A stretch of DNA of 64,000 bases from IMG/VR virus record IMGVR_UViG_3300014059_000006, positions 1 to 64,000 of that record; one strand, 5' to 3'. Both the position numbers and the translations under genes were made by a program. The notes beneath the pieces are model-generated. The model was given only the letters and a program-made list of their open reading frames with translations, was not told the DNA's origin and did no database searches. Source of the stretch: a virus (Duplodnaviria; Caudoviricetes). Every line of letters starts with the position of its first letter. Position 1 is the stretch's first letter. This document shows positions 24,545 to 24,665 of this stretch, piece by piece.

Positions 24545-24607
24545 ATGAGATTCACTGCAACATTATATAGTTCGCTCTATTTACCTACTCGAGATAGGCT
24601 GAGATAA
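24545..24607 (+). CDS. attenuator leader peptide 3 (MRFTATLYSSLYLPTRDRLR)
   Basis: Core TTA TAT AGT TCG CTC TAT TTA matches downstream Leu/Leu/Ser/Ser/Tyr tRNAs. Confidence 0.85.
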   Translation: MRFTATLYSSLYLPTRDRLR

Positions 24608-24629
24608 CTATGTAATAAAAAAAATACGT

Positions 24630-24665
24630 AAAAACCCTCGGTCTTAATTGATTCGAGGGTTTTTT
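24630..24665 (+). terminator. attenuator terminator 3
   Basis: AAAAACCCTCG GTC...GAT T CGAGGGTTTTTT. Confidence 0.9.

Follow-up and report, generated by a model that had tools for sequence, protein, structure and literature searches.

Several enterobacterial leader peptides are multivalent, with the thr leader combining regulatory codons for Thr and Ile and the leaders of ilvGMEDA and ilvBN combining those for Ile, Val, and Leu. The attenuator of pheST (pheM), which governs a tRNA synthetase operon, illustrates that attenuation can also serve genes of the translation apparatus, and in the trp operon of Escherichia coli the weaker antiterminator is accepted to win over the terminator by forming earlier. 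A general model of leader-peptide attenuation has been formulated (PMC1183508), and in mycobacteria, leaderless polycysteine short open reading frames (ORFs) are reported to act as Cys-responsive attenuators (bioRxiv 10.1101/834739). Among tRNA genes, the trn array of Anabaena is induced under translational stress (PMC8421152) and is controlled by the repressor TrcR (PMC10272220); the words attenuation, leader peptide, and terminator are absent from the text of the former paper. A full-text literature search returned no paper on leader-peptide attenuation of tRNA genes.

The reason for which phages carry tRNA genes has been debated for fifty years, and the regulation of these genes is, to our knowledge, almost unexplored. 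Among the proposals are codon compensation, the decay of host tRNAs, and an escape from defenses that target tRNAs (PMC10264068, PMC11555353). Here, we describe a phage tRNA operon preceded by what is likely to be a ribosome-mediated (leader-peptide) transcription attenuator, as the original prediction for this DNA had proposed; decisive support for this reading comes from the finding that leader content follows tRNA content in three units of one phage and in a distantly related phage.

The window (i.e., the whole stretch of DNA analyzed) comprises the first 64 kb of an IMG/VR virus record of 107.9 kb, which has ~31% G+C. Terminase, portal, and capsid genes of the phage match crAss-type families, the Crass_capsid Pfam domain is present in the capsids of close relatives, and wastewater metagenomes contain near-identical DNA; the phage is a crAss-like phage of wastewater. 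Its tRNA island lies on the plus strand between 21.1 and 27.8 kb of the window and is broken up by HNH and LAGLIDADG homing-endonuclease genes. Inteins with a LAGLIDADG domain also occur in the large terminase of several relatives (P0004, P0060, and P0065), consistent with a heavy homing-endonuclease load of this phage group. The motif TTTG, 18 to 21 nt, TAnnTTTG, which we take to be the promoter consensus of Bacteroidota, has 10 matches in the window (versus 3.7 expected), 7 of them on the plus strand within 20.9 to 28.4 kb, the region of the tRNA island. One of these promoters opens the unit considered here (unit 3), whose first 40 to 44 nt recur at 20893 and 23482 (units 1 and 2); each repeat precedes the same layout as in unit 3, such that there are three units of this kind in the window. 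The control region of unit 3 consists of the following parts:

24505–24536, plus strand: promoter of the Bacteroidota type (TTTG, 20-nt spacer, TAnnTTTG), from the motif count
24545–24607, plus strand: leader ORF of 20 codons (ATG at 24545, TAA at 24605–24607)
24563–24583, plus strand: putative regulatory run LYSSLYL (TTA TAT AGT TCG CTC TAT TTA), codons 6 to 12
24562–24616, plus strand: hairpin 1:2, in which the run pairs with the 3′ end of the ORF, stop codon included (minimum free energy [MFE] folds)
24596–24603, plus strand: antiterminator strand, the core of segment 2 (AGGCTGAG), ending 1 nt before the stop codon
24630–24665, plus strand: intrinsic terminator, segments 3:4, a 14-pair hairpin followed by T6 (from folds)

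The ATG of the leader lies 8 nt past the −7 box and leaves a 5′ untranslated region of ~0 to 4 nt, a gap that implies leaderless or near-leaderless initiation; translation of the leader would have to start in this manner in the Bacteroidota host. The LAGLIDADG gene of the phage has the same promoter motif 5 nt upstream of its ATG, a spacing like that of the leader. In one relative, L202, a 126-codon ORF is situated between the promoter and the unit-3 leader (L202:4138–4714), and this leader would thus need an internal translation start.

Downstream of the terminator, the operon of unit 3 comprises five tRNA genes and a homing-endonuclease ORF:

24673–24747, plus strand: tRNA-Leu(tag), the first gene of the operon, 75 nt long and 8 nt past the T-run
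24752–24843, plus strand: tRNA-Leu(taa)
24851–24934, plus strand: tRNA-Ser(tga)-like gene with an atypical T-loop, read by eye and aligned to the Ser(tga) gene of relative L190
25014–25102, plus strand: tRNA-Ser(gct)
25184–25681: HNH endonuclease ORF between the Ser(gct) and Tyr genes
25655–25743, plus strand: tRNA-Tyr(gta), the last gene of the operon

Neither ARAGORN nor Rfam called a Ser(TGA) tRNA in the window. The gene of this type that had been predicted does exist as a Ser(UGA)-like gene at 24851–24934. Its acceptor stem, CTTGAAA anticodon loop, and long variable arm are in place, but its T-loop is noncanonical and tRNA finders miss it. It shares 60 identical positions over 95 aligned columns with the Ser(tga) gene of L190, which occupies the same place in the operon and is called by ARAGORN solely at a lowered threshold. 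The accompanying proposal, that the operon groups the class II isotypes, has to be narrowed, because the short Leu(tag) means that the Leu/Ser/Tyr operon is not uniformly composed of long-arm tRNAs: this gene lacks a long variable arm in the window (75 nt) and in L189 and L190 (74 to 76 nt across the three) and measures 83 to 84 nt in L185 (L185:1355–1437) and L202 (L202:4724–4807). The 77-nt spacer between the Ser(tga)-like and Ser(gct) genes (window 24937–25013) is missing from a contig of a closely related strain (run X3), where 24936 is joined to 25014.

The LYSSLYL run samples Leu(taa), Tyr, Ser(gct), Ser(tga), and the Leu(tag) box, i.e., 5/5 of the downstream tRNAs, and bears out the original prediction that it matches the codon boxes supplied downstream; the coordinates given with that prediction all proved correct as well. 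Chance expectations were obtained by simulation from the codon usage of the phage itself, with codons grouped by box. A run of at least 7 codons served by the five downstream tRNAs has a P of 1.3e-4, and the run together with sampling of all five tRNAs has a P of 5e-5 (joint P of 3.5e-4 when strict wobble rules are applied). The other two reading frames contain runs of 3 and 2. The run makes up 7 of the 19 codons, and the remaining leader codons belong to other operons.

The sister units have equivalent parts and different cargoes:

20900–21083, plus strand: sister unit 1, with promoter, 25-codon leader (20942–21019), and terminator (21054–21083)
23485–23679, plus strand: sister unit 2, with promoter, leader (from 23538 or 23559 to 23624), and terminator (23652–23679)

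The operon of unit 1 encodes Glu, Pro, Cys, Phe, Thr, Arg(acg), Gln, and His tRNAs, and that of unit 2, in the window, encodes Ala-like, Asp, Lys-like, and Asn tRNAs. In relatives, the three operons hold 8, 11, and 5 tRNAs and jointly serve all 20 amino acids. Each leader codon was assigned to the operon whose tRNA serves its box, with the relatives' full set of 24 tRNAs as reference. On this basis, the leaders of units 1, 2, and 3 contain unbroken blocks of 15, 19, and 7 codons of their own operon (other frames: at most 3 in the window and at most 5 over all leaders), and the leader-by-operon table of the window alone departs from independence with a chi-square P of 3e-8. The same table pooled over four phages gives a P of 2e-31, a value to which the homologs contribute as nonindependent observations; own-class shares, pooled over the four phages, amount to 66, 76, and 52% for units 1, 2, and 3, against backgrounds of 31, 49, and 20%.

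For unit 2 in the window alone, the match to its four remaining tRNAs is not significant. Its operon is without seven tRNAs that are found in relatives and that leader 2 still samples, and no other tRNA occurs in the rest of the phage genome, 12% of which is missing from the record. We take this loss as recent erosion around the LAGLIDADG insertion, and it shows that the match between leader and tRNAs can decay and is not upheld at all times. In the erosion zone (window 23681–24500), where relatives have 11 tRNAs, we find the LAGLIDADG endonuclease gene (23881–24315) with its own promoter (23844–23875), an orphan tRNA 3′ fragment (~24316–24337), and a Lys(ttt)-like gene (24346–24416) without a pairing acceptor stem; the Ala(tgc)-like gene of the operon scores below the Rfam threshold (26 bits). 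Behind the terminator of unit 1, a 5′ fragment resembling the start of the relatives' tRNA-Glu (21091–21127) adjoins a complete, divergent tRNA-Glu (21128–21201), and the fragment may have been left behind by replacement or gene conversion.

Some further observations concern stop codons. Within 27620–27770 of the window, a suppressor-type tRNA(CTA) has its own consensus promoter upstream, without leader or terminator. The TAG recoding at which this gene hints was rejected, as TAG read-through extends almost no frame in the genome. Leader 1 is the sole leader with a TAG stop, and an in-frame TAA follows 9 nt further on. Outside the window, on the minus strand of genome G000 between 66 and 90 kb, TGA read-through merges several neighboring ORFs of the same frame (e.g., 85967–87841, from pieces of 153 and 470 codons); such joined ORFs could reflect local TGA recoding, sequencing errors, or chance.

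The flanking DNA of related phages, retrieved via relatives of the terminase, yielded 16 leaders in 8 phages. The short leader ORF is present in 16/16, and seven related phages share the design, which is kept over large-terminase (TerL) identities from 84% down to 34%. Unit 3 is retained in L202, L189/L087, L190/L086, and L185 with 9 to 11 consecutive Leu/Ser/Tyr codons; the enrichment for these codons that homologous leaders were expected to show is therefore present in four relatives, whose runs are longer than the 7 codons of the window. Unit 2 is found in four phages, and its leaders in L190 and L202 sample 11/11 of the operon's tRNAs [Ala, Asp, Lys, Trp, Arg(tct), Ile(gat), Met, Gly, Val, Ile(tat), and Asn]. 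The residue order of the unit 2 block varies while its content is kept, which indicates selection on codon content and not on the peptide.

In the most divergent of these phages, L005 (34% identity in TerL), a plus-strand operon groups its tRNAs differently, as Phe, Asp, Asn, Lys, Glu, Trp, Tyr, Ser, Ser, Cys, and Arg(tct). Its leader contains a 13-codon run that covers 11/11 of these tRNAs (joint P of about 1e-5); the two Ser boxes are represented by TCA and AGT, and Arg(tct) by AGA. That a differently grouped cargo has a matching leader implies that the leader changes with the cargo, and we regard L005 as the strongest single result. A divergent tRNA cluster on the minus strand of the same contig [L005:1–1470; Met, Leu(taa), Pro, Thr, Met, Val, Ala-like, and Gly] begins 5 nt past a consensus promoter and is without leader or terminator; one of the two L005 clusters would thus be attenuator gated. 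L192 is a further case of cargo loss with the leader retained: a unit-1-like leader (L192:3106–3410) with Thr, Gln, Arg, His, Pro, and Glu codons and a very strong antiterminator precedes two detectable tRNAs (Pro and Gln).

Contigs of closely related DNA show changes on a finer scale. Four runs were compared, all as contigs, and the two of them labeled RNA-Seq probably represent DNA. In run X3, the unit-1 leader differs by several synonymous changes, one Pro-to-Arg(CGT) change, which remains within the operon 1 set, and the loss of one in-frame codon. In X3 and X4, no change is listed in the unit-3 ORF, antiterminator strand, or terminator hairpin, and 1-nt indels fall in the promoter spacer, the A-rich spacer behind the stop codon, and the T tail behind the terminator. 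Other routes to homologs added little: a search of GenBank phages with unit 3 DNA gave matches at the tRNA level alone, a PhoH protein probe of IMG/VR returned no relatives, and exact-pattern scans of IMG/VR for the leader motif gave either nothing or chance matches with no tRNA downstream. Scanning IMG/VR and the metagenome collection with a TerL profile recovered mostly distant relatives without a nearby tRNA cluster, with L005 and L192 being the useful ones. The TerL relatives L186, L187, L188, and L204 have no tRNA cluster within 10 kb of the terminase, and L204 has a lone tRNA-Cys among its structural genes.

The codon content of the leaders bears directly on the nature of the signal. The same attenuator might respond to general translation stress or amino acid starvation (through host shut-off, infection stage, or uncharged tRNA) instead of to a shortage of specific tRNAs and could then time the expression of the tRNA island as a whole or switch it on under stress. 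A stalled ribosome cannot distinguish a missing from an uncharged tRNA, leaders contain some codons of other operons, and leader 2 keeps codons for the seven tRNAs that its phage no longer encodes, all of which would suit such a switch. A stress sensor would, however, not need blocks made up almost solely of the codon boxes of their own operon, and the block of L005, with both Ser boxes and AGA for Arg(tct), tracks a grouping of its own; on this evidence, we consider a general stress signal unlikely and prefer an attenuator that reads the decoding of its own operon's codons.

For such an attenuator, the RNA must be able to adopt alternative structures, and the predicted folds of unit 3 provide them. 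In MFE folds, hairpin 1:2 sequesters the antiterminator strand, and the fold of the leader has a z-score of −3.15. The terminator hairpin (24630–24664; −17.5 kcal/mol, with the T-run ending at 24665) is missed by a simple terminator scan, owing to a 6-nt loop, two inner pairs, and a bulge, and is recovered by the folds. The pairing that had been proposed between AGGCTGAG (24596–24603) and CTCGGTCT (24637–24644, in the 5′ arm of the terminator) is present as 8 bp with two G.U pairs, at about −11.6 kcal/mol, and its equivalents in homologs are preserved through compensating changes. With the run as segment 1, the antiterminator strand plus stop codon as segment 2, and the terminator as segments 3 and 4, the predicted layout is that of the classical 1:2 / 2:3 / 3:4 scheme with the stop codon within segment 2. 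The 8 nt between the T-run and tRNA-Leu fit no promoter, so that transcription of the operon must pass through the terminator.

Pairing between segment 2 and the 5′ arm of the terminator is found in 13/13 leaders tested, with energies of −11 to −20 kcal/mol and shuffle P values from below 0.002 (0/500 shuffles) to 0.058; this test covered all leaders but the three of L202, which were added later. Unit 3 of the window has the weakest antiterminator among the tested leaders (shuffle P of 0.022). The antiterminator strand lies 2 to 29 nt upstream of the end of the stop codon, and the predicted duplex of unit 3 in the window extends 7 nt past that end. Antiterminator and terminator sequences vary among phages with complementarity retained, and the five unit-3 pairings (L202 included) occupy nearly identical alignment columns. 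As the MAFFT alignment has a 1-column register shift in the terminator of two sequences, the 2:3 helix was assessed by per-sequence duplexes. RNAalifold applied to the five unit-3 homologs recovers hairpin 1:2 as well as the terminator; 8 pairs are preserved despite changes in both partners, mostly in hairpin 1:2. This hairpin is within the MFE structure of 12/13 folded leaders, the exception being L084, where the MFE structure joins segment 2 to the 5′ arm of the terminator.

These pairings also speak to the idea that the promoter serves a small RNA or micropeptide gene with an ordinary terminator, the tRNAs being supplied by unregulated leak-through or by upstream transcripts. The terminator is strong, the ORF is short, and a terminated transcript of ~120 nt would be expected in any case. 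Under this idea, however, the match to the tRNA cargo is left unexplained, as is the preservation of the antiterminator by compensating changes in every tested leader, and the gap that separates the T-run from the first tRNA is too short for a promoter; in the four phages with unit 2, it is codon content that is conserved and not peptide order, for which reason a functional micropeptide was rejected. We judge this arrangement to be very unlikely and return to the attenuator, whose operation can be followed by folding the nascent RNA codon by codon, with the stretch up to the front edge of the ribosome blocked.

In these ribosome-position folds of unit 3, 8 nt of the 5′ arm of the terminator pair with the antiterminator strand when the A site is at codons 2 to 12, and this pairing drops to 7, 4, 1, and 0 nt from codon 13 onward. 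Given that the run occupies codons 6 to 12, the sensing codons would end where a stalled ribosome starts to cover the antiterminator. With a ribosome at the stop codon, the terminator alone remains in the constrained folds, and the same behavior is seen in 4/4 other leaders folded. The full-length MFE structure of unit 3 retains the terminator at every ribosome position; with the terminator as the equilibrium structure throughout, read-through needs the antiterminator to form first.

That the run stops at this point is one of the observations that a chance origin has difficulty in accommodating. A+T-rich DNA is rich in short ORFs, Asn, Lys, and Ile are common residues, and unit 2 of the window, taken by itself, does not reach significance against its four remaining tRNAs, such that a short ORF matching nearby tRNAs might arise by accident in an A+T-rich spacer, with the hairpin as a processing or insulating element between tRNA blocks. 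Most leaders, however, have a joint P of at most 1e-5 (several with fewer than 1 in 100,000 simulations), and accident would have to extend to the frame control, to three units per phage, and to conservation over 84% to 34% TerL identity; the explanation therefore seems extremely improbable. Nor do we give appreciable credence to a T-box-type riboswitch that binds tRNA directly with no part for translation: a terminator/antiterminator pair ahead of translation-apparatus genes would suit one, but the ~120-nt leader is without specifier-loop architecture, a frame-specific codon block requires a reading ribosome, and Rfam found no T-box or other cis-regulatory family at the gathering threshold and no T-box at E values up to 1. 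A match to a PyrR site over the unit-1 terminator was dismissed (28.5 bits, against a threshold of 54).

As an attenuator, unit 3 is predicted to operate as follows. The TTTG/TAnnTTTG promoter would start a transcript at whose 5′ end a ribosome translates the 20-codon leader. With rapid decoding of Leu, Ser, and Tyr codons, the ribosome would reach the stop codon and cover the antiterminator strand (24596–24603), the terminator (24630–24665) would form, and transcription would halt 8 nt before tRNA-Leu. When one of the aminoacyl-tRNAs is scarce, the ribosome would stall within 24563–24583, open hairpin 1:2, and free the antiterminator strand, which could then pair with the emerging 5′ arm of the terminator and permit read-through into Leu(tag), Leu(taa), Ser(tga)-like, Ser(gct), and Tyr(gta). 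The new tRNAs would quicken decoding and turn the operon off again, giving negative feedback on tRNA supply. This course of events presupposes a translated leader, coupling of transcription to translation in the host, an efficient terminator, and a physiological trigger, each of which we infer.

The most likely function is feedback control of tRNA supply, with the operon being switched on by slow decoding of Leu, Ser, or Tyr codons. Candidate natural triggers are codon-usage mismatch, host tRNA decay during infection, and tRNA-targeting defense (PMC10264068, PMC11555353). As a more tentative extension, to which we assign less than an even chance, the three attenuators might jointly form a counter-defense sensor, in which host immunity that cleaves or depletes tRNAs makes ribosomes stall on a leader codon and induces the matching operon alone. 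If so, the phage would possess on-demand, self-limiting repair of the decoding pool, possibly common to crAss-like and other large phages.

If correct, the attenuator reading would provide the first case of attenuation control of tRNA genes and a direct feedback loop on decoding capacity, and the leader would be a readable record of the tRNAs that the phage treats as one supply unit. Leaders of this type might serve as annotation aids, in that they indicate which tRNAs an operon held ancestrally even where some have since been lost, unit 2 of this phage being an example. They also offer small, programmable sensors that report how fast a chosen codon is decoded.

By function, the nearest case is the trn array of Anabaena, which, as predicted for the phage operons, is an accessory tRNA array that is silent until translation is impaired. 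It differs in being controlled at the promoter, by a repressor protein that acts on direct repeats, and in residing on a cellular megaplasmid and not in a phage. T-box riboswitches likewise couple the state of tRNA to the choice between terminator and antiterminator before translation-related genes, but they bind the uncharged tRNA directly and need no ribosome. The mycobacterial polycysteine ORFs resemble the phage leader in that the sensing ORF begins right at the 5′ end of the transcript or adjacent to it (implied for the phage by the 8-nt gap), whereas they belong to another phylum, sense a single amino acid, and control protein-coding cargo.

With the trp, his, pheA, leu, and pheST (pheM) attenuators, unit 3 appears to share the same switch, including, as in E. 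coli trp, an antiterminator weaker than the terminator (−11.6 versus −17.5 kcal/mol in the phage); those attenuators differ in sensing one amino acid and in having protein-coding cargo. Compared with the trpL, hisL, thrL, and ilvL families, unit 3 falls outside, as its cargo is five tRNA genes plus a homing-endonuclease ORF. The phage element nevertheless appears closest to the multivalent thr and ilv leaders and displays every structural property of an attenuator for which it was tested. In common with these leaders, it has a promoter-proximal short ORF with mixed regulatory codons, segments that can pair as 1:2, 2:3, and 3:4, a stop codon placed such that a terminating ribosome masks segment 2, a terminator before the first gene, and, as predicted for the phage, read-through upon stalling at any of several kinds of codon. 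It departs from them in that its cargo consists of tRNA genes and not of biosynthetic enzymes, in that its codons occur mostly once or twice per tRNA and not in long runs of a single kind, in that three elements split all 20 amino acids among them, and in that its output, tRNA, would act on the sensed step itself.
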